Part shown: positions 240-31,323 of the stretch, piece after piece | How the letters are laid out: every line of letters begins with the position of its first letter | Position numbering within the stretch: the stretch's first letter is position 1 | NCBI GenBank assembly: GCA_017450215.1 | Contig: JAFSVH010000101.1 | Location: 1,534 to 65,533 of the forward strand | Reading direction: 5' to 3' | DNA: 64,000 bases | From: Bacilli bacterium | GTDB taxonomy: Bacteria; Bacillota_I; Bacilli_A; ML615J-28; CAG-698 | Position numbers and translations under genes: made by a program | The notes under the pieces: model-generated | Seen by the model: the letters and a program-made list of their open reading frames with translations, nothing else | Told to the model about the DNA's origin: nothing | The model's database searches: none

Positions 240-266
240 ACAAATACCATCAACAAGTATTATTCT

Positions 267-1784
267 TTATTTTACCTCATACATAGGTTTATTAATTATT
301 AAAGGTTTTTCAAAGTAAGTTTTTAATTGAGATGTTGCTTCTACTTTACCCCCATTTATTTTAAATATCATTATGTTAATACCTATGAAGTTATTCAAAT
401 CCAATTCATGAGGTAATTTATTTAATAAGACATTGATAATAAAATTGTTATTTCTATTAATTAAATGAACATAATTTTGTATTTCAATATTCAATAAACT
501 CTCATCATTCAAATCGTAATTACGCCTATAACTAACTGCTTTTCTACTAATAATAGTTTTACCACAATCATTTCTAATTGTAATAGGTATAAATGGATTT
601 ATATATTCTTTGTTTTTCCTATATCCATATAAATTAATAAAAATTGTAGTTCCATTCGCAAAAAAGTAATCATTCAAAAATCTTATTGATAATATTTCAT
701 TCGTAATATTTAATTTAAATTTAACAATTTCCTCGACATATTTTATTGCCAATGTTTCTTTTTTATATATATTTCTATTATTATCACTTAACCAAAAACT
801 TCCTAATGAAAATCTTTCAATATACTTAGTTATTTCTTCACAATGAAAAAACCTATCAACAATTGATATATTCCATTCTATACTACCAATATCTATAATA
901 TCATCATAAATGTATTTTATTTCATTTTTTGGAAAATATTTCAAAAATTGTAAAATGAAATCATCTATAAATAAATTATACAAATTAATCAAAACAGTTC
1001 TTACTTTATGAACAATTTTATATTTCACTGTATATTTATGTACTTCTTTAAAATTAATTTTAGTATAATTAAATTTCAAATAGTTATATAAATCTATAGC
1101 ATACTGCAATTTACATTTTTTTGGTTCTCTAATCATCGCAATATTTTCAGTAAATTCATAAAAATAAACAACCAATTGTATAAATGTAAAATCATAATTA
1201 AAAGTAAGAACATTGATATTGTTGTCTATATTTAAATACATATTTTTGTTAAAATCAAATTCTTTAAAAAAGTGATTTTCAGTTTTTATTTCAATTATAA
1301 AAGTTTCATTCATGAAAGAGACGTTCAATTTGTTTTCCCCTAAAAAATCTGTGAAGACTTCGTTTTGATCATAACAATCAAAATTACTCTTTACAATTTC
1401 CTTGAACTCTTCAATTTTAAAATCAGATCTTAAAATTATATCTATATCACCAAATTGTCTTTTCCAACCATTGTAAATAATTATCTCAAGTGGATATCCC
1501 TTATAAATCAAGAATTGCTGTCTATGTTCTTTTAAAGAAAATAAAAGCTTTTTAAAAAACATCAGGAAAATTAATCTATTTTCGGCAAATGAGTTTTTAA
1601 CTATTTCAATATTACTTAGATTAAATAAAGAACTTTCAACAAGCAAATCATAATAATGAATAAAAATTTTATGTTTAATTAGAAAATTAATAATATATTC
1701 AGTATTTATATCTACATTTTCATCAATATACAAAATATGGTTATTTCTAATCAATTCAAGAATAAACTTATCTTCCAATTTCAT
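267..1784 (-). CDS. nucleotidyltransferase-fold (pol-beta-type NTase) protein, 505 aa
   Basis: Six-frame ORF. Motif GWKRQFGDIDIILRSDF fits the hG[GS]...DxD NTase signature. It is the last gene of the tightly packed operon, 10 nt after the ABC gene. Confidence 0.55.
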   Translation of the reverse strand: MKLEDKFILELIRNNHILYIDENVDINTEYIINFLIKHKIFIHYYDLLVESSLFNLSNIEIVKNSFAENRLIFLMFFKKLLFSLKEHRQQFLIYKGYPLEIIIYNGWKRQFGDIDIILRSDFKIEEFKEIVKSNFDCYDQNEVFTDFLGENKLNVSFMNETFIIEIKTENHFFKEFDFNKNMYLNIDNNINVLTFNYDFTFIQLVVYFYEFTENIAMIREPKKCKLQYAIDLYNYLKFNYTKINFKEVHKYTVKYKIVHKVRTVLINLYNLFIDDFILQFLKYFPKNEIKYIYDDIIDIGSIEWNISIVDRFFHCEEITKYIERFSLGSFWLSDNNRNIYKKETLAIKYVEEIVKFKLNITNEILSIRFLNDYFFANGTTIFINLYGYRKNKEYINPFIPITIRNDCGKTIISRKAVSYRRNYDLNDESLLNIEIQNYVHLINRNNNFIINVLLNKLPHELDLNNFIGINIMIFKINGGKVEATSQLKTYFEKPLIINKPMYEVK

Positions 1785-1794
1785 TTATATTAAT

Positions 1795-3444
1795 CTATAA
1801 AAGAACTATATTATCAGCAAATGAATCAAATTGTGAGTCATGTGTGAAAACAATTATTGTTTTATCCTTTTTTAAAGTATGTATATATTCAATAATTTTT
1901 TTACTATTTTCATTATCAATTTCAGATGTTGGCTCATCTAAGATATAAACATTTGTTTCTTTAAGTAAAGTTCTTAATAAACAAATTCTTCTTTTTTCAC
2001 CTCCAGATAAATTAGAACTATTTAAATTAATAACAAAGTCCATTCCATTCTTCTCAATTAAACGAGTTAAATTTAATTCTCCTATAAGTATTTTCAATTT
2101 TTCTTCACTATAGTTATTATTCCCATATGTAACATTATCAATAAACGATCTATTAAACAATTGTATATCTTGAAATAAAACTCCTACAGAAGAAATATCA
2201 TATTCATAATTCTTTTCATCATTTATTAAAATTTCACCACTTTTTGGTGTTAATAATCCAAGCATTAATTTTATTAAGGTGCTTTTACCCTTACCACTCT
2301 CTGATTTAACAACAGTTATTTCATTACTATTGAATACTAAGTTTAAATTTTGATATATTTCTTTTTCACCATAATTGAATGATAAGTTTTTAATTTCAAT
2401 AATTGGAGATCTATCAATCTTTTTTATCCCATTCATTTTGACTTCATAATCACAAAGGTTTATCTCGAATAAACGGCTAAGTGCTTTATCCCCCTCAGCT
2501 AAAAGTTTAGCGTATCTACTAAAGCCTGATATAGGGGTATATAATTTTTGAACATATAAATAAGCAATAGTAAATGCACCAGCTGTTAAAATATTAATAT
2601 TTATCATATAAAATGTGACAAGTAAAACTAATACAATTCCAATCGTTTTAACAACACTAATTGTCGGAAAAAGTGCAGATAGGCTTTTATTAAGTTTAGT
2701 AGTTTGTTTGTACGAATCATTTAAATAGCTATTTGCCAAATACGATTCATTTTCTTCTTCTCTATTGATATGAACCATTTTTAAATTCTTTATTAATGAT
2801 AAAAAATAATTATTTGTATCGTCCGTAATTGATGAAATATAACCAGAGTATTTTTTAGTGGTATTTCCAATTTTAGTTGAAATGAAATAAACTGGAAACA
2901 CAAATATAATAGCTGTTAAAGCTACTTTCCAATTCCATACAAAGAAAATTATTATTATCCATATTACTTCTATAATATCTCTAATAAAACCATTAAATGG
3001 TGTTACAATAATTTGACTAGTGTATGTTATATCTTTAGTAATTCTAGTTATAAGATCGCCTTCTTTTAAAAATGAACTATCTGGATCATAATTATTAATT
3101 ATTTTTGCAAACATATCTTTTTGTACTGCTATTTTTATCAATAAACCAAATTGGGATACAAAATAACCAAAAGCTGTATTAAGGATTGAAACTATAATCA
3201 AAACTAAGCCAAAAATCAACAGTAGCAAAACTATTCTATTATCAAGTGCATTATATAATATTAAAGCCACTCCCGAAAGTTTATCAGGATTAGCAACCAT
3301 ATCTATAATATAACCTATCATTAAAGTTGGGATAGATGATAAAAAACCTGTTATTATCGATAACAAAATATACATTACAATTTTATATTTATTATTCTTA
3401 ATATATGGATATAAATTTTTAATACCTGTACAATTCAATTTCAT
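1795..3444 (-). CDS. ABC transporter permease/ATP-binding fusion (peptide-exporter type, no C39 peptidase domain)
   Basis: N-terminal 6-TM region. Walker A SGKGKST, signature LSGGEKRR, Walker B ILDEPTSEID. Overlaps the upstream gene by 4 nt (ATGA). Confidence 0.85.
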   Translation of the reverse strand: MKLNCTGIKNLYPYIKNNKYKIVMYILLSIITGFLSSIPTLMIGYIIDMVANPDKLSGVALILYNALDNRIVLLLLIFGLVLIIVSILNTAFGYFVSQFGLLIKIAVQKDMFAKIINNYDPDSSFLKEGDLITRITKDITYTSQIIVTPFNGFIRDIIEVIWIIIIFFVWNWKVALTAIIFVFPVYFISTKIGNTTKKYSGYISSITDDTNNYFLSLIKNLKMVHINREEENESYLANSYLNDSYKQTTKLNKSLSALFPTISVVKTIGIVLVLLVTFYMININILTAGAFTIAYLYVQKLYTPISGFSRYAKLLAEGDKALSRLFEINLCDYEVKMNGIKKIDRSPIIEIKNLSFNYGEKEIYQNLNLVFNSNEITVVKSESGKGKSTLIKLMLGLLTPKSGEILINDEKNYEYDISSVGVLFQDIQLFNRSFIDNVTYGNNNYSEEKLKILIGELNLTRLIEKNGMDFVINLNSSNLSGGEKRRICLLRTLLKETNVYILDEPTSEIDNENSKKIIEYIHTLKKDKTIIVFTHDSQFDSFADNIVLL

Positions 3445-4382
3445 TGATAATCACCTACCTCATTGATAAATTTAAATATCTTATCTAATTGGCTATAATC
3501 ATATTTATATGTTAATTTATAACCATTTATTTTATTTTTATCTATTAATTCCTTTATTTGTATAATTTCCTTATTGAGCTCACTTTTTGTTAATGTATCA
3601 TAATCATAAACATTTTTTAAAAAATAACAAAACAACTCTGATTTACTTATTTTTTCTATTATAGGAAAATCACTTAATTCATTATTTTCTAAAATAATAA
3701 AATTGTATTTAAAGCTTTTTTCTTTAACCCAATCACTATGATTGTAAATTTCTAAATTAATATATTTTTTATTCTCACCTAATAATGAACTATAGACACA
3801 ATTTGTATCTATACTATTAATAATATTTTTAAAACTATCCTCCCATAATCTTACAACTTTAGAACCTGCTAATATTTCAAAATTATTATTAAAAACTATT
3901 TTATCATCACTAATTAAACCATAATTATGATTTTTCACCAAATAAGATGCAATTGTTGACTTTCCCAATCCTGATTTTCCTATTAATGCAAAAACTTTAT
4001 TTTTATTATAAATAGCAGTACCATGTATAACAAAATTATTATTAAAACGTAAAAGACTTATCAGACCATTTCCCATAGAAATCCTATATAGCAACTCATT
4101 TCTTTCAGGAAAATCATTTTTCTTATCATAATATATTAATATATTATCTTTGTCTATTTTCATCTCAATTCCAGTCTTGTAAAAAAACACTTTTTCTTTT
4201 TTATTAGAAAATATTTTTGAAATTTTATTTTCTATTAATTCACTTTTTTCTTTATACTTAAATGCTCTTTTAGATAGCATTATTCTTATTGTTTTTGAAT
4301 ATGGGTGCTGAACAGTGTCGAAATTATTGATATTAAACTCTGTCAACACCATCATATCATATATATAGCATACATTGTCCAT
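3441..4382 (-). CDS. HPr kinase C-terminal-domain-like P-loop kinase (HprK-related)
   Basis: HGTAIYNKNKVFALIGKSGLGKSTIASYL resembles the HPrK/P P-loop. The ORF track starts at TTG 4403. I prefer ATG 4382, which is preceded by GAGGAGAAA. Confidence 0.6.
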   Translation of the reverse strand: MDNVCYIYDMMVLTEFNINNFDTVQHPYSKTIRIMLSKRAFKYKEKSELIENKISKIFSNKKEKVFFYKTGIEMKIDKDNILIYYDKKNDFPERNELLYRISMGNGLISLLRFNNNFVIHGTAIYNKNKVFALIGKSGLGKSTIASYLVKNHNYGLISDDKIVFNNNFEILAGSKVVRLWEDSFKNIINSIDTNCVYSSLLGENKKYINLEIYNHSDWVKEKSFKYNFIILENNELSDFPIIEKISKSELFCYFLKNVYDYDTLTKSELNKEIIQIKELIDKNKINGYKLTYKYDYSQLDKIFKFINEVGDYQ

Positions 4383-4555
4383 TTTCTCCTCTTCTCGAAT
4401 CAACTCTATATTTTACATTGTATTTAAAATATTCAATATCAAAGAATCACATAATAATTTTTTTAAACACAGTTATTTAAGAAATCCTACTCTAAAAAAC
4501 ATATAGCTTTATTTATATTTTACTTGAATAACCTAATTAAAAATATACATCACGA

Positions 4556-5905
4556 TTAATCTTGAGATTTAATAATATTTAGTATATTTGTCCCTTTTTG
4601 GCAATACTTTTTTCTCAATTTTAAAACGAAGTTTTTAAGTTCGGGCATTAAAATTTCATTGTGAACTTTATGAGAATTATTTACGAACAAATTTATTTCT
4701 ATAATATCAAGTAAATGTGAATAATTGTTTATAAATTCAAGAGTTTTGTTTCTATCCAAATTAGATTCACAAAAATAACCAAACAATAATGAAACATGTG
4801 TAATTATATTAAATCTTTTTAAGTTGGTTAATATTGGTACTATACTCTCAATTTTTATTTTTTTATTAAATAGCATCAACATTTTTTTTGAATATGATTC
4901 TATTCCTAAAAAAAGTTTTATACACCCTGCTTTTTTTATTATTTTTACGAATTCCTCACTTTGAAATTTAACTCCAAATCGTGTTGAAGCCATCCACGTT
5001 ATTTTTATATTTCTTTCCAATATTTCTTTAGAAAAAATTATTAAATAATTTTCATGAATAAAACTATCTACAAATTTAAATTTTTTTATTTTATATTTTT
5101 TATGAAGATATAATATTTCATCAATCAATATAGTGATTGTTTTTATATGTGAAGTCCAATTAAATTTAGATTCATAGCAAAATTCACACTTTCCATAATA
5201 GCATTTACTAGATGTCCTTATAGGAAAATAATAAAAACTATCTCTTTTATCAATATTAAAATTCAAGTCAAGCAAACTATTGTTTTGCACATCTTTTGTT
5301 GAGAAAATATGTTCTCTAAATAGATAACAGTTAGAAATATTGTCTAAAGAAAACAAGCCTTTGAATGTATATTTTTTCTCAATTACTATATTTTTAAAAA
5401 ATAAATATAAATTTTTCAAAAAAGATATATAGTTAACATATAAAAAGATGTTTTCGAACTCTATATTAGTAAATTTTGTTTTTAAGAATATTTCACCTAA
5501 AAGATAAATATTAATTCTTTCTTTATCAATTTGTTTTGCAATGACTAATGAAATAATTAAACTATCAAAATCATAAGCATATAGAAATACTATATGTTCA
5601 CTTAATGGTATTCTTTCAAAAAAATGTAATACTTGGAATACCTTATATGTTTCATCTACTAGTGTCTGAATATTTAATTCTTTGTTAAATATTATCCTAT
5701 TTTCATCGAATTTAAATAAATGTTTATACTTTGTTTTTATTATTGTAAAGGTATGTGGCGAATATAATTTAAACATATTTTCTATATTATTTATTTCCGT
5801 GATATTTATATTAAATAAATTACTTATTTTTATTAAAATCAAATAATCATAATAATATAGATTGCTCATACCATTATAAACATACAAAGAGTATTTATAA
5901 TTCAT
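4556..5905 (-). CDS. radical SAM protein with N-terminal ~230-aa domain (class-B/B12-binding-like architecture) and non-canonical CX4CX2C motif
   Basis: SSKCYYGKCEFCYES, read from the DNA as TGC TAT TAT GGA AAG TGT GAA TTT TGC. Downstream LFLGIESYSKKML resembles the GxES motif of B12-rSAM enzymes. Confidence 0.7.
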   Translation of the reverse strand: MNYKYSLYVYNGMSNLYYYDYLILIKISNLFNINITEINNIENMFKLYSPHTFTIIKTKYKHLFKFDENRIIFNKELNIQTLVDETYKVFQVLHFFERIPLSEHIVFLYAYDFDSLIISLVIAKQIDKERINIYLLGEIFLKTKFTNIEFENIFLYVNYISFLKNLYLFFKNIVIEKKYTFKGLFSLDNISNCYLFREHIFSTKDVQNNSLLDLNFNIDKRDSFYYFPIRTSSKCYYGKCEFCYESKFNWTSHIKTITILIDEILYLHKKYKIKKFKFVDSFIHENYLIIFSKEILERNIKITWMASTRFGVKFQSEEFVKIIKKAGCIKLFLGIESYSKKMLMLFNKKIKIESIVPILTNLKRFNIITHVSLLFGYFCESNLDRNKTLEFINNYSHLLDIIEINLFVNNSHKVHNEILMPELKNFVLKLRKKYCQKGTNILNIIKSQD

Positions 5906-6833
5906 ATTTATACACTATTCCCAAAACATTGTTATTATTGATTTCAGTCTTTTCATTAGAATTATCACCTTTAGTTATAATAGAATCTTTTCCTATTGAT
6001 ATTATTCTATGAACAACTAAAACTTTATTACTATTATAAAGTATTACATCTCCTTTCTTCAAATTTGTAATTTCTACTTTTTTAATCAAAATGTCATCAC
6101 CATCCTTTAAAAAAGGAGACATACTTGAGCCATAAATTTTTGTTATTATTTTCTTAGTCTTATACAATATCTTTTTAACTAATTCTACTGAGATATAAGG
6201 TAAAACATTAATATTATTAAAGACATATACCGCTTTTTTGTATGCTATATCACAGCAATTTAGTTTTTCATCTTCAGTTAAATAAAGTTTTTTTGTGAAA
6301 GCATAGATATACGCAGGACAAGCATCACATAAATTAACATAGTTGCAATTATGGCATTTTGAGTTAGGATTTTCAGTATATGCATCCAAAAAAACCCCAA
6401 TCTTTTCCCATGCTTCCGAAAATGATAATTCATTTAAATCAATTTTACAAAAATCTCCATAAAGACATGGTTTTAAGATTAAATTTGAATTAATATAAAA
6501 AGAATATCTTCCACCTCCACAATCAAAACATTTTTCACGTCTTTCATTCTTATAATCAATTTGCCAATTGTGTATTAAATTATCATCTTGTGACAACAGT
6601 ATATTTACAATTTTGCCTGAAGAACATTGAAAATCAACTATTGAATCATCTCCATTCAATGATGGCCACAAATTATAATCAAAACGAAATTCAATCTCCA
6701 TTTTTTTTGCCAATGAAGACACTTTTTCAAACATACTATAATTATAATTTGTTAAAACCATCTTTATACCAACATTAATTTCCTTTTCCTTCAACTTCTT
6801 TAAGTTATCCATAATAATATCGTATGGTTTCAA
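5895..6833 (-). CDS. SPASM-domain protein lacking a radical SAM CxxxCxxC triad, fused to a C-terminal SipW/ER-type (S26B) signal-peptidase-like domain
   Basis: Seven-Cys SPASM pattern CFDCGGG...PC...FC...C.NC....C..C. C-terminus has GSSMSPFL...GDVILYNSN...VHRIISIGKDSIITKGDNSN, matching the SM(E/S)P Ser box, the His box and the KGDNN box of SipW-type peptidases. No CxxxCxxC and no TM segment. Confidence 0.65.
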   Translation of the reverse strand: MKPYDIIMDNLKKLKEKEINVGIKMVLTNYNYSMFEKVSSLAKKMEIEFRFDYNLWPSLNGDDSIVDFQCSSGKIVNILLSQDDNLIHNWQIDYKNERREKCFDCGGGRYSFYINSNLILKPCLYGDFCKIDLNELSFSEAWEKIGVFLDAYTENPNSKCHNCNYVNLCDACPAYIYAFTKKLYLTEDEKLNCCDIAYKKAVYVFNNINVLPYISVELVKKILYKTKKIITKIYGSSMSPFLKDGDDILIKKVEITNLKKGDVILYNSNKVLVVHRIISIGKDSIITKGDNSNEKTEINNNNVLGIVYKYEL

Positions 6834-6907
6834 TAAAGGATTACATCCATAATAATCTTCATTTTTCTAAATGTATCATGTGTTTTTACCTCATTCCTTA
6901 TAACAAA

Positions 6908-7387
6908 TTACTTCTTAATTTCCAGTGTAATTGTTACTTTATCACTTGTTGAAAGTAATTCTTTTATTTTATTCTCACTTAAATTGATACGACCAAGTTT
7001 AGTAAATGACCAACTATTATTACCATAATACAAACATATTTGATTAGAATTATAAAGTACTATATCACCTGGACCTACATTCATTCTTTCATCATTACTA
7101 ACTAATGTAAATCCTAGTAAACCTGTTTGTTCAAAATTACCATATTCATGTAATTCAATAGTTAATTCATTATTAATATGATTCATTAGATCTTTTACTG
7201 ATGCATTATCATACCATATTACATCAATTACATCACTTCCAATTTTTAATATCATTTTAACCTCTTCTGCTTCTTCTTCATTATTTGTTATATCATTAGT
7301 TGGTTTCGTGTTTTCTGTATCTTCATTATTATAACTACATCCAACTAATAATAACAATAAAACAAATATTAATATTATTCTTTTCAT
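6908..7387 (-). CDS. lipoprotein, cyclophilin-like (PF04126-type) domain
   Basis: Signal peptide with lipobox LLVGC, then a D/E/N-rich linker. The domain pattern IGSDVIDVIWYDNASVKDL...GPGDIVLYNSNQICLYYG matches the cyclophilin-like family. An own promoter and RBS AGGAGA lie upstream. Confidence 0.55.
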   Translation of the reverse strand: MKRIILIFVLLLLLVGCSYNNEDTENTKPTNDITNNEEEAEEVKMILKIGSDVIDVIWYDNASVKDLMNHINNELTIELHEYGNFEQTGLLGFTLVSNDERMNVGPGDIVLYNSNQICLYYGNNSWSFTKLGRINLSENKIKELLSTSDKVTITLEIKK

Positions 7388-7443: not shown

Positions 7444-7480
7444 CAAAAAAAGCCAGTCTTGTGGACTGACAGTTTTTATT
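7444..7480 (-). terminator. bidirectional hairpin terminator after the AKR operon
   Basis: CCAGTC-ttgtg-GACTG hairpin at 7453-7469, flanked by an A-run (7445-7451) and a T-run (7473-7480). Confidence 0.45.
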
Positions 7481-8321
7481 TTGCTTCATATGTAGGATGC
7501 CATTTAGCATATTCTTCAACACGATCATCATCTGCTTCATATCTACGCTTTCCTACATTTAATTTTGCCATTTTTTTCATATCATCATTATCTAACTTGA
7601 AATCAAATATATTAATATTATCTTTAATATGATCTACATTCTTAGAACCAGGAATTACAATAAATCCCATTTGATTATGCCATTTTAATACTACTTGAGC
7701 AGTTGATTTATTATGCTTTTTCGCTATACCCTTTACTATCTCACTATCAAGAAGTTCAGCAGTCATTCCTTTTCCACCTAGTGGATACCAGCTCATTATT
7801 CTAATGTTTTCTTTTTCTGTTATTTTTCTTAGATTATCTTGTGGGAAAAATGGATGACATTCAACTTGAATAACTTGAGGAATAATATCATATTCATCTA
7901 ATACTTCATTGATATGTTTTTCAAAATTAGAAATACCAATTGATTTAATTTTACCTTCTTTATAAGCTTTTACTAACTGATCATATCCATGACGCCAATT
8001 AGATGTTGCTTGATGAATAAATAATAAATCAATATAGTCTACTCCAAGTCTTTCTAGTGTTTCATCAACTGCGTTAGGATTTTCGTATTCAGAAGCCCAT
8101 AGTTTAGTAGACAAAAAGATATCTTCTCTTTTGATACCACTATCTTTCATAGCACGCCCAACTGCTCTTTCATTACAATATGCATTTGCAGTATCAATTA
8201 ACTTGTAACCTAATTTTAATGCATTTAATACACTATTATAAGCATCTTTTGGTTCAAGTAGGAATGTCCCAATTCCTACACTTGGCATTAATACATTGTT
8301 GTTTAATTTAAATTCTTTCAT
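7476..8321 (-). CDS. aldo/keto reductase (2,5-diketo-D-gluconate reductase-like)
   Basis: Motifs LMPSVGIGTF, IDTANAYCNE and IPGSKN typical of the AKR family. Confidence 0.9.
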   Translation of the reverse strand: MKEFKLNNNVLMPSVGIGTFLLEPKDAYNSVLNALKLGYKLIDTANAYCNERAVGRAMKDSGIKREDIFLSTKLWASEYENPNAVDETLERLGVDYIDLLFIHQATSNWRHGYDQLVKAYKEGKIKSIGISNFEKHINEVLDEYDIIPQVIQVECHPFFPQDNLRKITEKENIRIMSWYPLGGKGMTAELLDSEIVKGIAKKHNKSTAQVVLKWHNQMGFIVIPGSKNVDHIKDNINIFDFKLDNDDMKKMAKLNVGKRRYEADDDRVEEYAKWHPTYEAK

Positions 8322-9914: not shown

Positions 9915-9980
9915 AACTACATTATATCATTTAATTGACCAGTAGTCAACTAATTTATTTTATTTTTTAAAAAAATGATT

Positions 9981-10081
9981 TTTTTTGATTTTTGATTTTG
10001 CGACTTTTTGTGCACGATTTTGGCGGTGATTATTTTTGATTTTTGATTTTACGACTTTTTGTGCACGGTTTTGGCGGTGAT
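9981..10081. repeat. two tandem copies of a ~51-bp direct repeat (~94% identical)
   Basis: ttttttgatttttgattttgcgactttttgtgcacgattttggcggtgat at 9981-10030, then tatttttgatttttgattttacgactttttgtgcacggttttggcggtgat at 10031-10081. Confidence 0.85.
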
Positions 10082-10117
10082 TTTTCATACAAGCGTTAAA
10101 CTTGATTTACTATTTAT

Positions 10118-10330: not shown

Positions 10331-10405
10331 TGGAGCAGGTAACGAGAATCGAACTCGCATCTTCGCCATGGCAAGGCGGTATATTAGCCGTTGTACTATA
10401 CCTGC
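10331..10405 (-). tRNA. tRNA-Gly (anticodon GCC)
   Basis: Hand fold of the 75-nt minus-strand sequence. Acceptor stem GCAGGTA/TACCTGC, T-arm GCGAG-TTCGATT-CTCGT, anticodon loop TTGCCAT, 3' TCCA. The D-stem is weak (3 bp). Confidence 0.75.
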
Positions 10406-23348: not shown

Positions 23349-23546
23349 TTTAAAGAATTTATTATAATAGTATCCAGAAGACCGATAATACTGATGTGAA
23401 CCACAGTTCACCACGGTGGGTCTCTCTCTTGGTATAATTAAAGGATTCTTATCTAAAATAAGCTTTCAACAGCATTATACCCTCAACACCCTAAATATCT
23501 ATTGTTCGGTTCGCATATTAAGTACAAACTCGAGAATTCCAGATAC
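23349..23546 (-). ncRNA. candidate ~240-nt structured small RNA or attenuator-type leader (class undetermined)
   Basis: Delimited by the consensus-like promoter at 23553-23581 and the terminator at 23305-23348. Contains hairpin GTGAAC-TGTG-GTTCAC. No ORF and no canonical T-box sequence found. Confidence 0.3.
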
Positions 23547-23552
23547 AATTAG

Positions 23553-25140: not shown

Positions 25141-26100
25141 ATGAATGATAGACTAAGAACAAACGAAACTTTACCCGATTTTGTTTCTACTCAGCATAAT
25201 TATCATACATTAGATTATTATTTTAAAAAGAAATACAATTCTAAAGTATTTAAAGTTGCCTTGAATGGTGACTTTTCTTGTCCGAACAGAGATGGCACTA
25301 TCTCTAAAGATGGTTGCATCTTTTGTAGTGACAAGGGAAGCGGAGAATTTGCTGGAGATAAACAAGATCCATTAAAAATTCAATTTAATAAAATTAAGGA
25401 CATAATTCATCTTAAATGGAAGGATGCTTTATACATTGCCTATTTCCAAGCAAATACTAACACTTATGCACCTTTATCAAAATTAAAGCGATTATTTGAA
25501 GAAGCAATTAATCTTGATAAAAACATTGTGGCAATTGACATTGCAACTAGACCAGATTGCTTATCAAGTGAATGCTTAGATTTTTTAGCTGAATTAAACA
25601 CTAGATGTAAAGTAATAGTCGAACTAGGACTACAAACCATCCACGAAGAAACAGCAATATTAATAAATCGTGGTTATAATTTAAATTGCTTTACTGAAGC
25701 AGTAAAGAAATTAAGGGAAAGAAAAATTGAAGTAATTGTCCATATTATTAATGGATTACCTCATGAAAGCTATGAAATGATGCTAGAGACTGCCTCATTC
25801 TTAGCTCATCAAGATATCCAAGGAATTAAGATTCATTCTTTATATATATTAGAAGGAACAAAAATTGCTTCAATGTATAAAAGCAATGAATTTAAGGTGC
25901 AAACTTTAGATGAATATGTGAAAACTGTGGCAAATCAACTTACTCTTTTAAGAGAAGATATTGTAATCCACAGAATAAATGGAGACCCACCAAAAGAGGC
26001 TCACATAGCCCCTGATTGGTGCTTAAAAAAGTTCGTTATTATGAACGAAATTGATAAATATATGAAGAAAAACGGACTCGTTCAGGGAGCACGTTTTTAG
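25141..26100 (+). CDS. radical SAM protein, TIGR01212 (YhcC-like) family
   Basis: FSCPNRDGTISKDGCIFC cysteine motif characteristic of this family. Confidence 0.8.
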   Translation: MNDRLRTNETLPDFVSTQHNYHTLDYYFKKKYNSKVFKVALNGDFSCPNRDGTISKDGCIFCSDKGSGEFAGDKQDPLKIQFNKIKDIIHLKWKDALYIAYFQANTNTYAPLSKLKRLFEEAINLDKNIVAIDIATRPDCLSSECLDFLAELNTRCKVIVELGLQTIHEETAILINRGYNLNCFTEAVKKLRERKIEVIVHIINGLPHESYEMMLETASFLAHQDIQGIKIHSLYILEGTKIASMYKSNEFKVQTLDEYVKTVANQLTLLREDIVIHRINGDPPKEAHIAPDWCLKKFVIMNEIDKYMKKNGLVQGARF

Positions 26101-26208: not shown

Positions 26209-26253
26209 GACTATACATTGTGAATATAATAGAAAATGGAGGGGTATGTTATA

Positions 26254-28626
26254 ATGTTAAACGTGAAAAAAAGAAACGGTGAAATCGTTGCTTTTGACAT
26301 TACAAAAATTGAAAAAGCAATTGAACAAGCCTTTAAATCCGTAAAGCGTGAATACTCAAAAGACATGTTAGAATTACTTGCTTTAAGAGTAACCGCTAAC
26401 TTTACAGAAAAAATACAAAATGGTGTTATATCTGTAGAAGACATCCAAGATAGTGTTGAAATTGTGTTGATTCAATCACAATTTGTGGATGTTGCAAAAT
26501 CTTATATTATTTATAGAAAACAACACGAAAAAATTAGAAATACTAGAAAGACTATTCTAGATTATAAAGATACAATTAATAATTACCTAAAAATAAATGA
26601 CTGGAGAGTAAAAGAAAATTCTACAGTTACTTATTCAGTTGGTGGTTTAATCCTATCAAATTCAGGTGCATTAACTGCTAATTATTGGTTAAGTGAAATC
26701 TATGATTCTGAAATTGAAGAAGCACATAGAAATGCTGATATTCATATTCATGACTTATCAATGTTAACAGGTTATTGTGCAGGTTGGTCATTAAAGCAAT
26801 TAATCAAAGAAGGTTTAGGCGGTGTTCCAGGAAAGATTACTTCTGCTCCTGCTGCTCACCTTTCTACTTTATGTAATCAAATGACTAACTTCTTAGGTAT
26901 TATGCAAAATGAATGGGCTGGAGCTCAAGCTTTCTCATCATTTGATACATACCTTGCACCATTTGTAAAAGCTGACAACTTAACATACAAAGAAACAAAG
27001 CAATGCATCCAATCTTTCATTTATGGTGTTAACACTCCTTCTCGTTGGGGTACACAAGCACCATTCACTAACATCACACTTGACTGGGTTGTGCCAAATG
27101 ATATGGCTGAGTTAAATGCAATCGTTGGTGGAAAAGAAATGGATTTCAAATATAAAGATTGCGTTAAAGAAATGGCAATGGTAAACAAAGCTTTCATCGA
27201 AATCATGATTGAAGGTGATGCTAATGGCCGTGGCTTCCAATATCCAATCCCTACATATTCTATCACTAGAGATTTTGATTGGAGTGATACTGAAAACAAT
27301 CGTTTATTATTTGAAATGACTGCTAAATATGGAACTCCATACTTCTCTAATTATATAAATTCAGATATGGAACCAAGTGATGTAAGAAGCATGTGCTGTA
27401 GATTACGTCTTGACTTACGTGAATTACGTAAAAAATCAGGTGGTTTCTTTGGTAGTGGTGAATCAACTGGTTCAGTTGGTGTAGTTACACTTAATATGCC
27501 TCGTCTAGCATATTTATCAAGTGATATAGATGACTTCTATAAGAGATTAGATCACTTACTAGACATTTCAGCAAGATCATTAAAGATTAAACGTGATGTC
27601 ATCACTAAATTCTTAGATGCTGGTCTTTATCCTTATACTAAACGTTATTTAGGCACATTCAATAACCACTTCTCTACAATTGGACTAGTTGGTATGAATG
27701 AATGCTGCTTAAATGCAAAATGGTTAAAGAAAGACTTAACTCATAAAGATAGTCAAGAATTTACAAAAGATGTTCTAAACCACATGAGAGAACGCCTAAA
27801 AGATTACCAAGAAAAATATGGCGACCTTTATAACTTAGAAGCAACTCCAGCAGAATCAACAGCTTATAGACTTGCTAAACACGATAAGAAGAGATTCCCT
27901 GACATCATTACTGCTTCTGATGGTGATGCTACTCCATATTATACTAATAGTTCTCATTTACCTGTTGGTTATACAGATGACATCTTCAAAGCTTTAGATG
28001 TTCAAGATGAATTACAAACACTTTATACATCAGGAACTGTTTTCCATACATTCTTAGGTCAAAAGCTTCCTGATTGGAAGTCTTGTGCTAAATTAGTTAG
28101 AAAGATCGCTGAAAACTACAAGCTTCCTTATTATACAATGTCTCCAACATATTCAGTATGTTCTAAACATGGTTACATTGAAGGCGAAGTTTATATTTGC
28201 CCTGAATGCGGAAGAAAGACTGAAGTATATAGTAGAATAACTGGTTACTATCGTCCTGTTCAAAACTGGAATGATGGAAAGACTGAAGAATTCAAGAGTA
28301 GACGCACATATATAATTGAAACTTCAAAGATGAAGAGAAAAACACATGAAGATGAAGCTTTAGAATGTGCACAACCAGAAGCAAAGGAAATGTCAGATAA
28401 GTTGTTATTATTTACTACTCCTACATGTCCTAATTGCAAAATGGCTAAAGCAATGTTAAAGAATGCAAATATTGATTATGTATCAATAGATGCAGAAGAA
28501 AACAAAGATACAACTTTAAAATTCGGTATTAAAAAAGCACCAACATTATTAGTTCCAACTGAAAATGGTTATGAATATTTTGATAATGCTAGTGAAATTA
28601 AGAGATATATCGAAAGTAGAAAATAA
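26254..28626 (+). CDS. nrdD: anaerobic ribonucleoside-triphosphate reductase (class III) with C-terminal glutaredoxin/NrdH-like domain
   Basis: N-terminal ATP-cone, glycyl-radical motif SRITGYYRP, zinc ribbon CPECG. Extra ~75-aa C-terminal domain LLLFTTPTCPNCKMAK...APTLLV at about 28402-28623. Start at ATG 26254 (GGAGG upstream) rather than track start 26236. Confidence 0.9.
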   Translation: MLNVKKRNGEIVAFDITKIEKAIEQAFKSVKREYSKDMLELLALRVTANFTEKIQNGVISVEDIQDSVEIVLIQSQFVDVAKSYIIYRKQHEKIRNTRKTILDYKDTINNYLKINDWRVKENSTVTYSVGGLILSNSGALTANYWLSEIYDSEIEEAHRNADIHIHDLSMLTGYCAGWSLKQLIKEGLGGVPGKITSAPAAHLSTLCNQMTNFLGIMQNEWAGAQAFSSFDTYLAPFVKADNLTYKETKQCIQSFIYGVNTPSRWGTQAPFTNITLDWVVPNDMAELNAIVGGKEMDFKYKDCVKEMAMVNKAFIEIMIEGDANGRGFQYPIPTYSITRDFDWSDTENNRLLFEMTAKYGTPYFSNYINSDMEPSDVRSMCCRLRLDLRELRKKSGGFFGSGESTGSVGVVTLNMPRLAYLSSDIDDFYKRLDHLLDISARSLKIKRDVITKFLDAGLYPYTKRYLGTFNNHFSTIGLVGMNECCLNAKWLKKDLTHKDSQEFTKDVLNHMRERLKDYQEKYGDLYNLEATPAESTAYRLAKHDKKRFPDIITASDGDATPYYTNSSHLPVGYTDDIFKALDVQDELQTLYTSGTVFHTFLGQKLPDWKSCAKLVRKIAENYKLPYYTMSPTYSVCSKHGYIEGEVYICPECGRKTEVYSRITGYYRPVQNWNDGKTEEFKSRRTYIIETSKMKRKTHEDEALECAQPEAKEMSDKLLLFTTPTCPNCKMAKAMLKNANIDYVSIDAEENKDTTLKFGIKKAPTLLVPTENGYEYFDNASEIKRYIESRK

Positions 28627-28641
28627 AAAAGAGATTAAATT

Positions 28642-29556
28642 ATGTATGATATCCTAATTATAGGTGCAGGAGCAGCAGGTATGACTGCTGCTCTTAATGC
28701 ACTAAGAAACAATAAAACTGTATTAGTAATAGAAAAAGAAACAATCGGTGGACAAATTGCCTCTTCACCAAAAGTAGAAAACCTTCCATCAATCAAAGAA
28801 ATCTCTGGTGTAGATTTTTCAAGTCAACTATATGATCAAATAGAAGCATTAGGATGTGAATTTGATTTTGATGAAGTTAAATCAATTGAAAAAATCGATG
28901 AAGGCCACTTCAAAATAATATCTGAATACAATGAATATGAAGCTAAATCAGTTATCATTGCAAGTGGAGTTAAACATCGTCATCTAAATGCTATCAATCA
29001 TGATTTATTAGATGGTAGAGGCATATCTTATTGTGCAGTATGTGATGGTGCCTTTTACAAAGATGAAATCGTCAGCGTAATCGGAGATGCTAATACTGCT
29101 TTACAATATGCACTTCTTCTCGCTAACACATCTCTTAAGGTATATTTATGTTGTCTTTTCGATAAATTATTTGCTGATAAAATCTTAATTAATCGTGTAA
29201 TAAAAAATCCAAGAATTGAAATAACTTATAATATTTCTCTTCTTGAATATTTAAAAGATGACAATAATAAACTTAAAGGTTTAAGGTTTGAAGATACTAA
29301 AACTAAAAAAGAAATAATCTTTGATTGCAAAGGCTGTTTTGTTGCAATAGGACAAATCCCTGACAATGAAAAATTCTCTAATTTAGTAGACTTAGAAAAA
29401 GGTTTTATCAAAACTAATGAATTGTGTGAGACAAAAACAAAAGGCTTATATGCTATTGGTGATTGTAGAGTTAAAACGCTTAGACAGGTTTCTACTGCTG
29501 TAGCTGATGGCGCTATTGCTGCCTTTTATGCAATTAATTATGTTGATTCTTTATAA
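28642..29556 (+). CDS. thioredoxin-reductase-like flavoprotein (CAVCDG redox centre), NADPH-binding motifs degenerate
   Basis: FAD motif IIGAGAAG and redox-active CAVCDG. VIGGGDSA is replaced by VIGDANTA and the HRRD Arg pair by CCLFD. Confidence 0.8.
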   Translation: MYDILIIGAGAAGMTAALNALRNNKTVLVIEKETIGGQIASSPKVENLPSIKEISGVDFSSQLYDQIEALGCEFDFDEVKSIEKIDEGHFKIISEYNEYEAKSVIIASGVKHRHLNAINHDLLDGRGISYCAVCDGAFYKDEIVSVIGDANTALQYALLLANTSLKVYLCCLFDKLFADKILINRVIKNPRIEITYNISLLEYLKDDNNKLKGLRFEDTKTKKEIIFDCKGCFVAIGQIPDNEKFSNLVDLEKGFIKTNELCETKTKGLYAIGDCRVKTLRQVSTAVADGAIAAFYAINYVDSL

Positions 29557-29565
29557 AAAAGAATG

Positions 29566-29604
29566 TGACTTGTATCAAAAATAGATACAAGCCACTTTTT
29601 TTAT
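29566..29604 (+). terminator. bidirectional terminator between the converging nrdD-trxB-like and nrdG operons
   Basis: CTTGTATC-aaaaata-GATACAAG stem, flanked by a T-run on plus and an A-run upstream. Confidence 0.55.
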
Positions 29605-30623
29605 TTAAATAAATGTCCTTCTATAACTTTCACAATTTTTTCTAAATTAACTTTATCATTATCAGAGAATCTATAAAAAGATGGACTATCAATATCCAAA
29701 ACACCATAAATATCATTACCATTATAAATTGGAATAACAATTTCAGATTTAGATCTTGCATCACAAGCAATATGACCATCAAACATCAAGACATTACCAA
29801 CAACTAATGTCTTACCTAGTTCTACACTTCTAAAGCAAACACCACGACCACGTTTTAAAACTGTACATGCAGGTTCACCCATAAATGGTCCTAACAATAA
29901 TTCATCATTTTTATATAAATAAAAACCTAACCAATTAATATTATCTATATTATGATAAAGCAAACTTGCTGTGTTTGCTAAAACGGAAATATCAAAATTA
30001 ACATCATTATTCAAACTATCAACATTAGTTATTAATTCTTTATATTTATCTACTTTATAACCAAATACTTTTGCTAAATTAGAATTCTTATAATCACTAT
30101 CTAAGCTTACATCGCTATAGATATAAATATCATAATATTTAGTAAATACTTTTTCTATTTTCTCTTTAATAGCATCATTTACTTCATCTACTTCAATCTC
30201 ACATGTAAAGAATTCAGTTTTTAAATTTAAATATTCATCAAATTCAAATTTTAATACTTTATTTTCATTCTTCTTATCAATTTGAACTTCATCAATAAAT
30301 CTATTCTTTAAAACGAAACTTTCAATATTATCTTCTTTAATTAAATCATTAAAAACTAATTCACTTATCTCTTTTTCGTATTCTTTTCTAGAATAGAGAA
30401 CAGATTTAGTCTTTAATGTTGCAACGTATTTCACATTATTACTAATTATCTTTCTAACTCTAATTGTATGAATAGATTGGAAATTTAAATCATCAAATAT
30501 ATTGCTTAAAATAAAAACAACTTCTTTATTACGTTTCAAATAATATTGACTAATATTAATTGGATTATTTAATTTATCAGGTAATATATTAATTCTATAT
30601 TTTAATTCAGTTTCAACAGCCAT
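29601..30623 (-). CDS. CYTH-domain / free methionine-(R)-sulfoxide reductase (GAF, fRMsr) fusion protein
   Basis: N-terminal ETELKYR (CYTH ExExK) and FTCEIEVDE. C-terminal WLGFYL...GEPACTVLKRGRGVCFRS...FDGHIACDARSKSEIVIP...GVLDIDS matches fRMsr including its three Cys. RBS AAGAGGT. Starts 1 nt after the nrdG stop. Confidence 0.75.
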   Translation of the reverse strand: MAVETELKYRINILPDKLNNPINISQYYLKRNKEVVFILSNIFDDLNFQSIHTIRVRKIISNNVKYVATLKTKSVLYSRKEYEKEISELVFNDLIKEDNIESFVLKNRFIDEVQIDKKNENKVLKFEFDEYLNLKTEFFTCEIEVDEVNDAIKEKIEKVFTKYYDIYIYSDVSLDSDYKNSNLAKVFGYKVDKYKELITNVDSLNNDVNFDISVLANTASLLYHNIDNINWLGFYLYKNDELLLGPFMGEPACTVLKRGRGVCFRSVELGKTLVVGNVLMFDGHIACDARSKSEIVIPIYNGNDIYGVLDIDSPSFYRFSDNDKVNLEKIVKVIEGHLFK

Positions 30624-30624
30624 T

Positions 30625-31323
30625 TTAATAACCTCTTAAATATACATTATCTACATATTCACTTAATATGTCTTTATATTTATTAGCTTCTTCTAAACTA
30701 ATTTCATGAAACCCACCTTTTATGCAGGTACCATGATCAACAAATTTTTGTAAATAAAGTTTCTTTGCTCCTTTTACAAGCTTTCCCATTTTTTTGATAT
30801 TTTCTTCATCATGAAATTCTTTAATTAAAGTAGTTCTAAATTCATAATCAATCACATCGCTCTTTAAATAATCGATAGTTTCTTGAATCTTGTTAAAATC
30901 AAAAGATTCAACACCTATTGTCTCATTATATCTTTCTTTTGAATTCTTAATATCCATAGCAACATAATCAATTAATTTTTCTTCAACTAATTCTCTTAAC
31001 AATTTTAAATTAGAACCATTAGTATCAAATTTAATAAAATATCCGATTTCCTTTATCTGTTTTAATTTTTCCTTTAATCCTTCCATTAATGTTGGTTCAC
31101 CACCACTAATGACAACAGCATCTAGCATCTTCTTTCTTAATTTAAGATAATCTAAGATTTCGTCAAAATCAAAATAAGGATATCTTTTATAATCAATAAC
31201 TAAAGCAGAATTATGACAATATGGACATCGAAAATTACATCCTCCAGTAAATAAGGATGCGCATAAAAAATCATTTAAATCAACTAAAGATAATTTTTCA
31301 AATCCATAAAATTCTTTACTCAT
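30625..31323 (-). CDS. nrdG: anaerobic ribonucleotide reductase activating protein (radical SAM)
   Basis: TGGCNFRCPYCHNS cluster motif typical of NrdG/PflA-type activases. Confidence 0.85.
   Translation of the reverse strand: MSKEFYGFEKLSLVDLNDFLCASLFTGGCNFRCPYCHNSALVIDYKRYPYFDFDEILDYLKLRKKMLDAVVISGGEPTLMEGLKEKLKQIKEIGYFIKFDTNGSNLKLLRELVEEKLIDYVAMDIKNSKERYNETIGVESFDFNKIQETIDYLKSDVIDYEFRTTLIKEFHDEENIKKMGKLVKGAKKLYLQKFVDHGTCIKGGFHEISLEEANKYKDILSEYVDNVYLRGY

Follow-up and report, generated by a model that had tools for sequence, protein, structure and literature searches.

A probable relic of a RiPP gene cluster with two radical SAM enzymes in a Bacilli bacterium

Linear polyphosphorylated peptides (LPPs) are a family of ribosomally synthesised peptides with post-translational modifications (RiPPs) whose gene clusters encode a SipW-like peptidase, a RiPP recognition element (RRE), an HprK kinase, a nucleoside triphosphate (NTP) transferase and, for export, a transporter like MsbA (Popov et al., Nat Commun 2026, PMC13381572). 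The kinase polyphosphorylates a serine of the core peptide, and the peptidase, which needs the RRE, removes a leader with the consensus YxxPxVLxHQxIxFETxxS, in which YxxP is the RRE-binding motif (PMC13381572). A serine is the phosphorylated residue in paeninodin-type lasso peptides (PMC13381572). Here, we analysed a 64,000-nt stretch of contig JAFSVH010000101.1 from a Bacilli bacterium (assembly GCA_017450215.1); the whole stretch is referred to as the window. A preliminary description made from the sequence alone had proposed that six genes near one end of the window, all on the minus strand, form a candidate RiPP-like operon with no recognisable precursor. The reading of these genes as RiPP biosynthetic machinery is right. 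We consider it highly probable, however, that the locus is a truncated relic of a RiPP cluster and not a complete six-gene operon.

The window holds much of the LPP gene set, namely a SipW-like peptidase (within a truncated gene that lacks a ribosome-binding site), an HprK-like kinase, a nucleotidyltransferase (NTase) and an MsbA-like exporter. The discrete RRE is missing from the window by tblastn but is present in five intact relatives of the locus (L005, L006, L007, L009 and L093). The intact relatives also add two radical S-adenosylmethionine (SAM) enzymes, one of which is fused to the peptidase: a radical SAM–SPASM (rSAM-SPASM) enzyme that carries the fusion, and a second enzyme referred to here as rSAM2. 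The statement in the preliminary description that the gene combination is not a described class is correct for the core module with two radical SAM enzymes, for which no description was found in the literature searched or in the supplements of the LPP paper. It does not apply to the combination of peptidase, RRE, kinase, NTase and exporter, which is that of the LPP family (PMC13381572).

The truncated rSAM-SPASM-peptidase gene and its breakpoint

The gene that had been taken for a new architecture, a SPASM domain that lacks the radical SAM Cys triad and is joined to a peptidase, is what remains of a 445-aa rSAM-SPASM-peptidase gene after truncation at its 5' end. Delimited mechanically, its open reading frame (ORF) spans 5895–6833 (312 aa), with the SPASM domain at ~6213–6530 and the SipW-type peptidase domain at ~5898–6188, the latter matching archaeal-type signal peptidase I (TIGR02228, 55.6 bits; cut-off 51.85). 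Searched with the 312-aa sequence, a set of 5.8 billion proteins yielded only four relatives. The three closest, P0001 (96% identity), P0002 (77%) and P0003 (48%), are each 445 aa long and have a full Radical_SAM N-terminus with a CX3CX2C motif at residues 26–33. At the nucleotide level (blastn), the window is 83.8% identical to L005 over 6630 nt (window 6864–260, L005 3549–10172) and 98.3% identical to L009 over 1006 nt (window 6863–5858, L009 714–1719). Homology to both begins sharply at 6863, corresponding to codon 124 in the 445-aa enzyme, and in a three-way alignment identity sets in abruptly at AATGAAGATTATTA. Just upstream of the homology start, within unrelated sequence, there is an in-frame TAG. 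No Shine-Dalgarno sequence was found before TTG 6833 or ATG 6812, and what looked like a TTG start at 6833 is a Leu codon from within the gene. The match of a 312-aa ORF to 445-aa homologues and the abrupt loss of homology at 6863 therefore identify the locus as the 3' 6.6 kb of a ~7.5-kb cluster.

The consequences for the enzyme were mapped on an AlphaFold2 model of the full-length relative P0002 (predicted local distance difference test score, pLDDT, 90.9). According to the model, the truncation strips strands β1–β4, the cluster-binding loop with CX3CX2C (C26/C30/C33) and the GGE SAM-binding motif, so that β5–β6 and the SPASM and peptidase domains are left. The rSAM-SPASM enzyme of the window is catalytically incomplete, with residues 1–123 gone that the intact relatives keep. 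The remaining peptidase domain is assigned to the SipW/SEC11 type, in which the Ser is kept and the bacterial Lys is replaced by His: the Ser of its GSSMSP motif aligns with the catalytic Ser of SpsB, the general-base Lys is replaced by His, and the predicted catalytic dyad consists of Ser237 and His275 (remnant ORF numbering).

The lack of a precursor in the two intergenic gaps of the locus, noted in the preliminary description, extends to the whole window, where tblastn and motif scans (regular expressions) detected no precursor, no PqqD-type RRE and no radical SAM N-terminus. It had been suggested that the substrate lies outside the window or is the cyclophilin-like lipoprotein encoded by the first of the six genes. 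The relatives point elsewhere, as their precursor and PqqD genes adjoin the rSAM-SPASM gene on its 5' side, and both are deleted here. With a breakpoint at 6863/6864, a single deletion or rearrangement would have taken away the genes for the precursor and the RRE along with codons 1–123 of the rSAM-SPASM gene, and would account for the absent precursor as well as for the SPASM-peptidase that has no Cys triad. The window copy is most likely non-functional. Because both oddities stem from one deletion, the result for the window locus is a correction, and the locus is not worth pursuing as a working pathway.

Only five of the six genes (260–6863) match the conserved cluster. The sixth, for the lipoprotein (Cyclophil_like2 plus lipobox, 68 bits), lies upstream of the breakpoint beside a TetR gene, two flavodoxin genes and an aldo-keto reductase (AKR) gene, and is missing from all intact or related loci. 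Its place beyond the breakpoint, which it now adjoins, and its absence from every related locus make it a gene of the flank, neither a cluster member nor the substrate; its candidacy as a RiPP substrate is rejected. The tight packing of the six genes, their RiPP-type domains and the lack of a terminator between the lipoprotein gene and the remnant would suit a complete six-gene operon of a new class, with a stand-alone SPASM-peptidase acting on an outside substrate or on the lipoprotein. We regard this as very improbable, given the distribution of the lipoprotein gene, the descent of the 312-aa ORF from a 445-aa gene with abrupt homology loss and a stop codon in frame upstream, and the position of the conserved precursor and RRE in the relatives, exactly where the deletion lies.

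It is also hardly credible that the junction is an assembly chimera and that the real genome carries an intact cluster. The sequences are metagenomic, and contigs break inside the locus in some samples, but these breaks map to an indel in the kinase gene and not to the junction. The junction is spanned by contigs L001–L004 and L095–L097 from at least five samples and different assemblers (MEGAHIT k141, metaSPAdes-type scaffolds, Logan), and it is 100% identical in contigs from at least eight metagenome samples. This recurrence across samples and assemblers shows that the junction does not stem from assembly. In these samples the truncated allele is clonal.

The kinase indel is a further change on the truncated allele. 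Contig L096 is otherwise identical to the window over 11.8 kb and has a 23-nt deletion at its position 8035 (Table 1), which frameshifts the kinase gene and leaves two ORFs, one of 207 aa and one of 104 aa. In one other sample, contigs L002 and L098 end or start exactly at this site, which suggests that both kinase alleles co-occur there. The relic is probably decaying. Over the long term, the ratio of nonsynonymous to synonymous substitution rates (dN/dS) between the window and L005 is 0.14–0.28 in all five genes, and the ancestral cluster was therefore functional and under purifying selection.

Several points weigh against, or limit, this account of the locus as a decaying relic. The recent dN/dS, between the window and L009, is ~1.1; it comes from only 17 substitutions, whose polarity is mixed and several of which are derived in the intact L009 copy, and it speaks neither for nor against relaxed selection. 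The window retains unbroken reading frames for the four downstream genes. The kinase–exporter–NTase block has its own conserved promoter-like sequence and ribosome-binding site, so that partial expression or function is possible. It is possible that a precursor and an RRE are encoded in trans elsewhere in the host genome, as the search spanned the 64-kb window. Finally, the chemistry of the intact pathway is deduced from homology only.

These points lead to an alternative in which partial function is kept and the genes for the kinase, exporter and NTase, perhaps with rSAM2, are transcribed from a promoter of their own, either because their products tailor and export a trans-encoded peptide, or because the ATP-binding cassette (ABC) pump confers immunity against the peptide of relatives with the intact cluster. 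We judge this unlikely. The four intact ORFs and the conserved promoter-like sequence with a strong ribosome-binding site upstream of the kinase gene are consistent with it, as are the wide distribution of the clonal allele (at least eight samples) and the observation that the LPP and lasso clusters of a genome often have their tailoring logic in common (PMC13381572). However, there is no precursor or RRE within 64 kb, searches of 5.8 billion proteins for PqqD and the precursor gave no family member in samples carrying the truncated allele, and the LPP peptidase depends on the RRE (PMC13381572). The kinase, at least, is dispensable, because a variant with a frameshifted kinase gene exists on the same truncated background.

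We also compared composition and looked for signs of mobility. The relic (260–6863) is the 6.6-kb stretch of the window with the lowest GC content (22.2%), but the GC content at its third codon positions is near that of housekeeping genes, so composition is not diagnostic of horizontal transfer. No close relatives were found in viral contigs or PLSDB plasmids, and there was no sign of carriage by mobile elements.

Intact relatives and their proposed pathway

The homologues of the cluster genes sit together in other genomes, as the preliminary description had anticipated for a true cluster, and their order is identical in L005, L006 and L007. The order common to intact loci is precursor (37–40 aa), PqqD (93–98 aa), rSAM-SPASM-peptidase fusion (445 aa), rSAM2 (~450 aa), HprK-like kinase (~312 aa), ABC exporter (~549 aa) and an NTP_transf_5 protein, the NTase (~500 aa). 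The leader of the precursors contains the motif Y-x-K-P-x-[VIL] and joins the core at F-[HS]-[AG]/C (the slash separates leader from core); the 13-residue core is C-x2-Ar-x2-D-[SA]-D-S-C-[YC]-S, with two invariant Cys and two invariant Asp residues. The C-terminal Ser of the core is invariant and Ser3 is not. The best NCBIfam match of the RRE is lasso_PqqD_Bac (38 bits), and the RRE is nearer to the lasso B1 proteins TbiB1 (E 0.0016) and PbaB1 (E 0.099) than to LppB (9X8Z), which gave no match at E ≤ 1. The rSAM-SPASM region has seven conserved auxiliary-cluster Cys residues. In L007 (3720–3958) and L008 the fusion gene is split: the protein P0004 stops at 369 aa, and a 73-aa ORF in L007, starting from the Met of the GSSM motif, encodes the remainder of the peptidase domain. 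The frame shifts at the catalytic Ser, which reflects either real decay or an error of assembly.

Relatives with the fusion are rare. A HMMER search of 1.84 billion representative proteins returned 219 relatives at E<1e-30, nearly all of which are stand-alone rSAM-SPASM proteins of ~350 aa; P0002, P0013 and P0033 are the only ones that reach through the peptidase domain. P0033 (436 aa, 29% identity) aligns over both the rSAM-SPASM and the peptidase regions. No relative of the fusion enzyme was found in 185,579 GTDB species representatives. Among 5.8 billion proteins, a precursor-profile search found only four precursor clusters, and a search with the L009 PqqD found only two clusters, on contigs of at most 1.7 kb. 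The two-rSAM core module is very rare in public data. A C-terminal fusion of a signal peptidase to a SPASM protein does not appear in any literature searched, and the fusion of rSAM-SPASM to a SipW-type peptidase is an ancestral architecture and unusual in itself.

A second group of loci contains the core module without the kinase, ABC and NTase genes. The P0013 locus (L102, 2940–6058) and the P0010 loci (L103, 7543–10760; L104, 1520–4737) encode a 37-aa precursor, PqqD, an rSAM-SPASM protein, an S24 peptidase fused to it or encoded next to it, and rSAM2. In two lineages the module lies directly downstream of a gene for a UvrD/PcrA-like helicase, with the precursor ORF overlapping the 3' end of the helicase gene. 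The enzymes of these loci share only ~33–35% identity with those of the window clade, and L102 carries, in place of the missing genes, two unknown proteins of 217 and 421 aa. More distant loci (L010 and L011) follow the same logic with different Cys-rich precursors. The window clade looks like a two-rSAM core module that captured a tailoring and export cassette of the LPP/lasso type. The seam between the core module and the kinase–exporter–NTase module is the 150–200-nt gap 5' of the kinase gene.

For the intact relatives we propose a pathway whose steps are drawn from homology. The RRE would bind the leader at Y-x-K-P-x-[VIL], and the rSAM-SPASM enzyme would cross-link the 13-residue core, probably through Cys thioethers of the sacti- or ranthi-type. 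PapB-type enzymes make Cys-Xn-Asp links with n = 0–6 (PMC9413430), and the core has the spacing C1-x5-D7. rSAM2 would add a further radical modification, possibly a methylation, and the kinase would phosphorylate a Ser. Elaboration of the phosphate by the NTase is possible, by analogy with LPP and paeninodin-type systems. The fused peptidase would remove the leader after F-[HS]-[AG], and the ABC pump would export the product. In the window, RRE binding, cross-linking and leader cleavage are impossible or unsupported, because there is no substrate, no RRE, no radical SAM cluster and no translation signals for the remnant.

Despite the shared genes, the intact relatives differ from LPP systems in several ways. 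Their precursors share YxxPx[VIL] with the LPP leader, and FHA/CKS in some members loosely resembles FET/xxS, but the rest of the leader consensus (VLxHQxIxFET) is unmatched in the relatives, and the window has no precursor. The LPP core is long, variable and linear, whereas that of the relatives has 13 residues with two invariant Cys. The LPP product is linear and made without a cross-linking enzyme, whereas the intact relatives carry an rSAM-SPASM maturase. Judged by gene content and precursor, the clusters of the intact relatives are not LPPs.

The rSAM-SPASM enzyme links the intact relatives to sactipeptide and ranthipeptide systems (SkfB, AlbA, PapB and CteB). The best structural match of the P0002 model is SkfB (Foldseek E 3e-13), with SkfB, SuiB and anSME as the closest folds. 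SkfB, AlbA and PapB are also the best matches among hidden Markov models of RiPP enzymes, with scores far under the cut-off (60 against 300 for SkfB; 31–48 against 340 for PapB). The short precursor of the relatives, with its Cys residues and invariant Asp, fits the Cys-Xn-Asp links of PapB (PMC9413430). In these systems the RRE is an N-terminal domain, whereas in the relatives it is a separate protein, and the C-terminal signal-peptidase fusion also differs. The window lacks the radical SAM half and a Cys-containing precursor adjoining the maturase; the relatives have both.

Lasso clusters of the paeninodin and pseudomycoidin type from Bacillota share with the relatives a discrete PqqD B1-like RRE, an HprK-like kinase, NTP_transf_5 and an ABC exporter, and the precursors of the relatives end in Ser. 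Neither an Asn-synthetase-like cyclase (C) nor a transglutaminase-like B2 protease is present in the window or in L005–L007, and the leader motif of the relatives uses Tyr, not Trp. rSAM2, in turn, resembles OxsB-type (class B) radical SAM enzymes in its CX4CX2C motif and core similarity, and its top NCBIfam matches are the B12-dependent radical SAM families PhpK, ApyD and BchE, but its N-terminal 225 residues match no B12-binding model.

Taken together, and with moderate confidence, the relic can be assigned to an undescribed RiPP family defined by a precursor, a separate RRE, an rSAM-SPASM enzyme whose SipW-type peptidase is either fused to it or encoded alongside, and an OxsB-like radical SAM enzyme; one clade of this family captured an LPP/lasso kinase–NTase–exporter cassette. 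If this is true, the peptide of that clade would be cross-linked, phosphorylated and possibly nucleotidylated or glycosylated, which would make it a new hybrid RiPP class, and the family would represent a second, independent use of signal-peptidase-type leader cleavage. It was not until 2026 that RiPP pathways were reported to use leader peptidases of the signal-peptidase type, and here such a peptidase is joined to the proposed cross-linking enzyme. The value of the relic is that it points to this two-rSAM family, which is very rare, seems not to have been described before and has a 13-residue core of unusual conservation. The relatives offer a compact expression target of ~7.5 kb (e.g., L005 2650–10172, or L006), and the clade offers a case from nature of modules exchanged between RiPP classes and of cluster decay.

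Layout of the locus and neighbouring genes

All six minus-strand ORFs are present at the coordinates first assigned to them, and profile searches uphold most of the original domain calls (cyclophilin-like, SPASM, S26-type peptidase, Radical_SAM, HprK-like, ABC and NTase). The features of the locus are listed in Table 1.

Table 1. Features of the relic and its borders in the window.
Feature	Positions	Strand
Intrinsic terminator after the NTase gene; hairpin 201–239, U-tract 195–200	195–239	-
Region with homology to intact RiPP clusters; 3' 6.6 kb of the ~7.5-kb ancestral cluster	260–6863	-
NTP_transf_5-type nucleotidyltransferase-fold protein, 505 aa, GDIDII motif	267–1784	-
MsbA-like ABC exporter, 549 aa, without C39 peptidase domain	1795–3444	-
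HprK-like peptide kinase, 313 aa from ATG 4382; Walker A GKSGLGKST	3441–4382	-
Site of 23-nt frameshifting deletion in variant L096	3751–3773	-
Intergenic gap, boundary of core module and kinase–exporter–NTase module	4383–4555	-
Second radical SAM enzyme (rSAM2), 449 aa, CX4CX2C	4556–5905	-
5'-truncated rSAM-SPASM-peptidase pseudogene, codons 124–445 of a 445-aa ancestor	5895–6863	-
Junction sequence without homology to intact clusters	6864–6907	-
Cyclophilin-like (PF18050) lipoprotein, flank gene	6908–7387	-

The tight packing reported for the genes is real, with a 4-nt overlap between the ABC and kinase genes, an 11-nt overlap between rSAM2 and the remnant and a 10-nt gap between the NTase and ABC genes, and the gaps at 4383–4555 and 6834–6907 are as first described. 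The terminator that closes the locus was confirmed by RNA folding (dG -20 kcal/mol, z = -4.3), with none of 200 shuffled sequences equally stable, and the terminator of the AKR gene was found at 7452–7470. A promoter had been placed after the AKR terminator. The window DNA is AT-rich (27% GC), and sigma-70-like matches occur at chance level (82 found against 83 expected), which does not bear out that promoter.

rSAM2 matches Pfam Radical_SAM with 38 bits, and the CYYGKCEFC sequence containing its CX4CX2C motif is invariant in four homologues. Its best NCBIfam matches, ApyD and PhpK, are far under the cut-off. In a profile search against the PDB, rSAM2 matched OxsB (E 2.7e-6), which has the same CX4CX2C motif, and only the radical SAM core aligned. 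The N-terminal ~225 aa gave no Pfam B12-binding match and a single-sequence AlphaFold2 model with a pLDDT of 34. The core of rSAM2 appears to be class B and OxsB-like, and its cobalamin dependence is putative.

The kinase gene, delimited mechanically as 3441–4403, has its real start at ATG 4382, preceded by a GAGGAG ribosome-binding site, and is syntenic in L005–L007. Its product matches TIGR04352 (HprK_rel_A, 35 bits) and Hpr_kinase_C (24 bits), both significantly and both below the cut-off. The gap between rSAM2 and the kinase gene contains a promoter-like TTGAAT-17-TAAAAT sequence as well as the GAGGAG before the kinase ATG. The proximal part of the gap is conserved in L005, and the gap is missing in L006 and L007. 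A hidden precursor in this gap was rejected, as the gap is not conserved in L006 and L007 and holds only promoter-like and ribosome-binding-site sequence. The exporter matches ABC_membrane (70 bits), ABC_tran (85 bits) and MsbA TIGR02203 (199 bits) and has no C39 domain. The NTase matches PF14907 weakly, with 19.5 bits in the window (significant, but under the curated cut-off) and 30.2 bits in the L005 orthologue, while the L006 orthologue carries no such assignment at E ≤ 1e-5; 137 columns are invariant across four orthologues. Searches of PDB sequences with the kinase and the NTase gave no significant match.

Upstream of the breakpoint, a block of genes for TetR, two flavodoxins, the AKR and the lipoprotein extends from the breakpoint to a tRNA-Gly(GCC) gene (10331–10405, minus strand), which is ~3.4 kb away. 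Between the TetR gene and the tRNA gene, positions 9976–10082 contain a tandem repeat with a unit of 51 nt (2.1 copies, 94% match), which gives rise to a spurious 42-aa ORF with an internal repeat. On the other side of the relic, beyond the left end of the window, contig L098 encodes an ISL3-family transposase (5307–6677) just past the glutamate dehydrogenase gene that flanks the relic; the transposase is a possible driver of local rearrangements. Among the matches listed for the flanking glutamate dehydrogenase, the best share only ~61–63% identity and come from MAGs of uncultured Bacilli, Acholeplasmataceae and Oscillospiraceae; the host can be described as a low-GC (27%), Bacillota-like bacterium.

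Further into the window there are other genes for radical SAM proteins. At 29601–31323 on the minus strand, directly downstream of metK, two genes are translationally coupled, one for a 232-aa radical SAM protein (Radical_SAM plus Fer4_12) and one for a 340-aa protein without a Pfam match. This pair is unrelated to the RiPP relic, and the 232-aa protein gave only a weak tblastn match to the radical SAM N-terminus. A 6S RNA was identified at 23367–23548 on the minus strand with 48.5 bits, barely over the gathering threshold. An anaerobic ribonucleotide reductase, NrdD (26236–28626, plus strand), has a C-terminal glutaredoxin domain (residues 724–758); its gene is preceded by one for a radical SAM protein with Radical_SAM_C (25141–26100) and followed by one for a thioredoxin-reductase-like flavoprotein (28642–29556).

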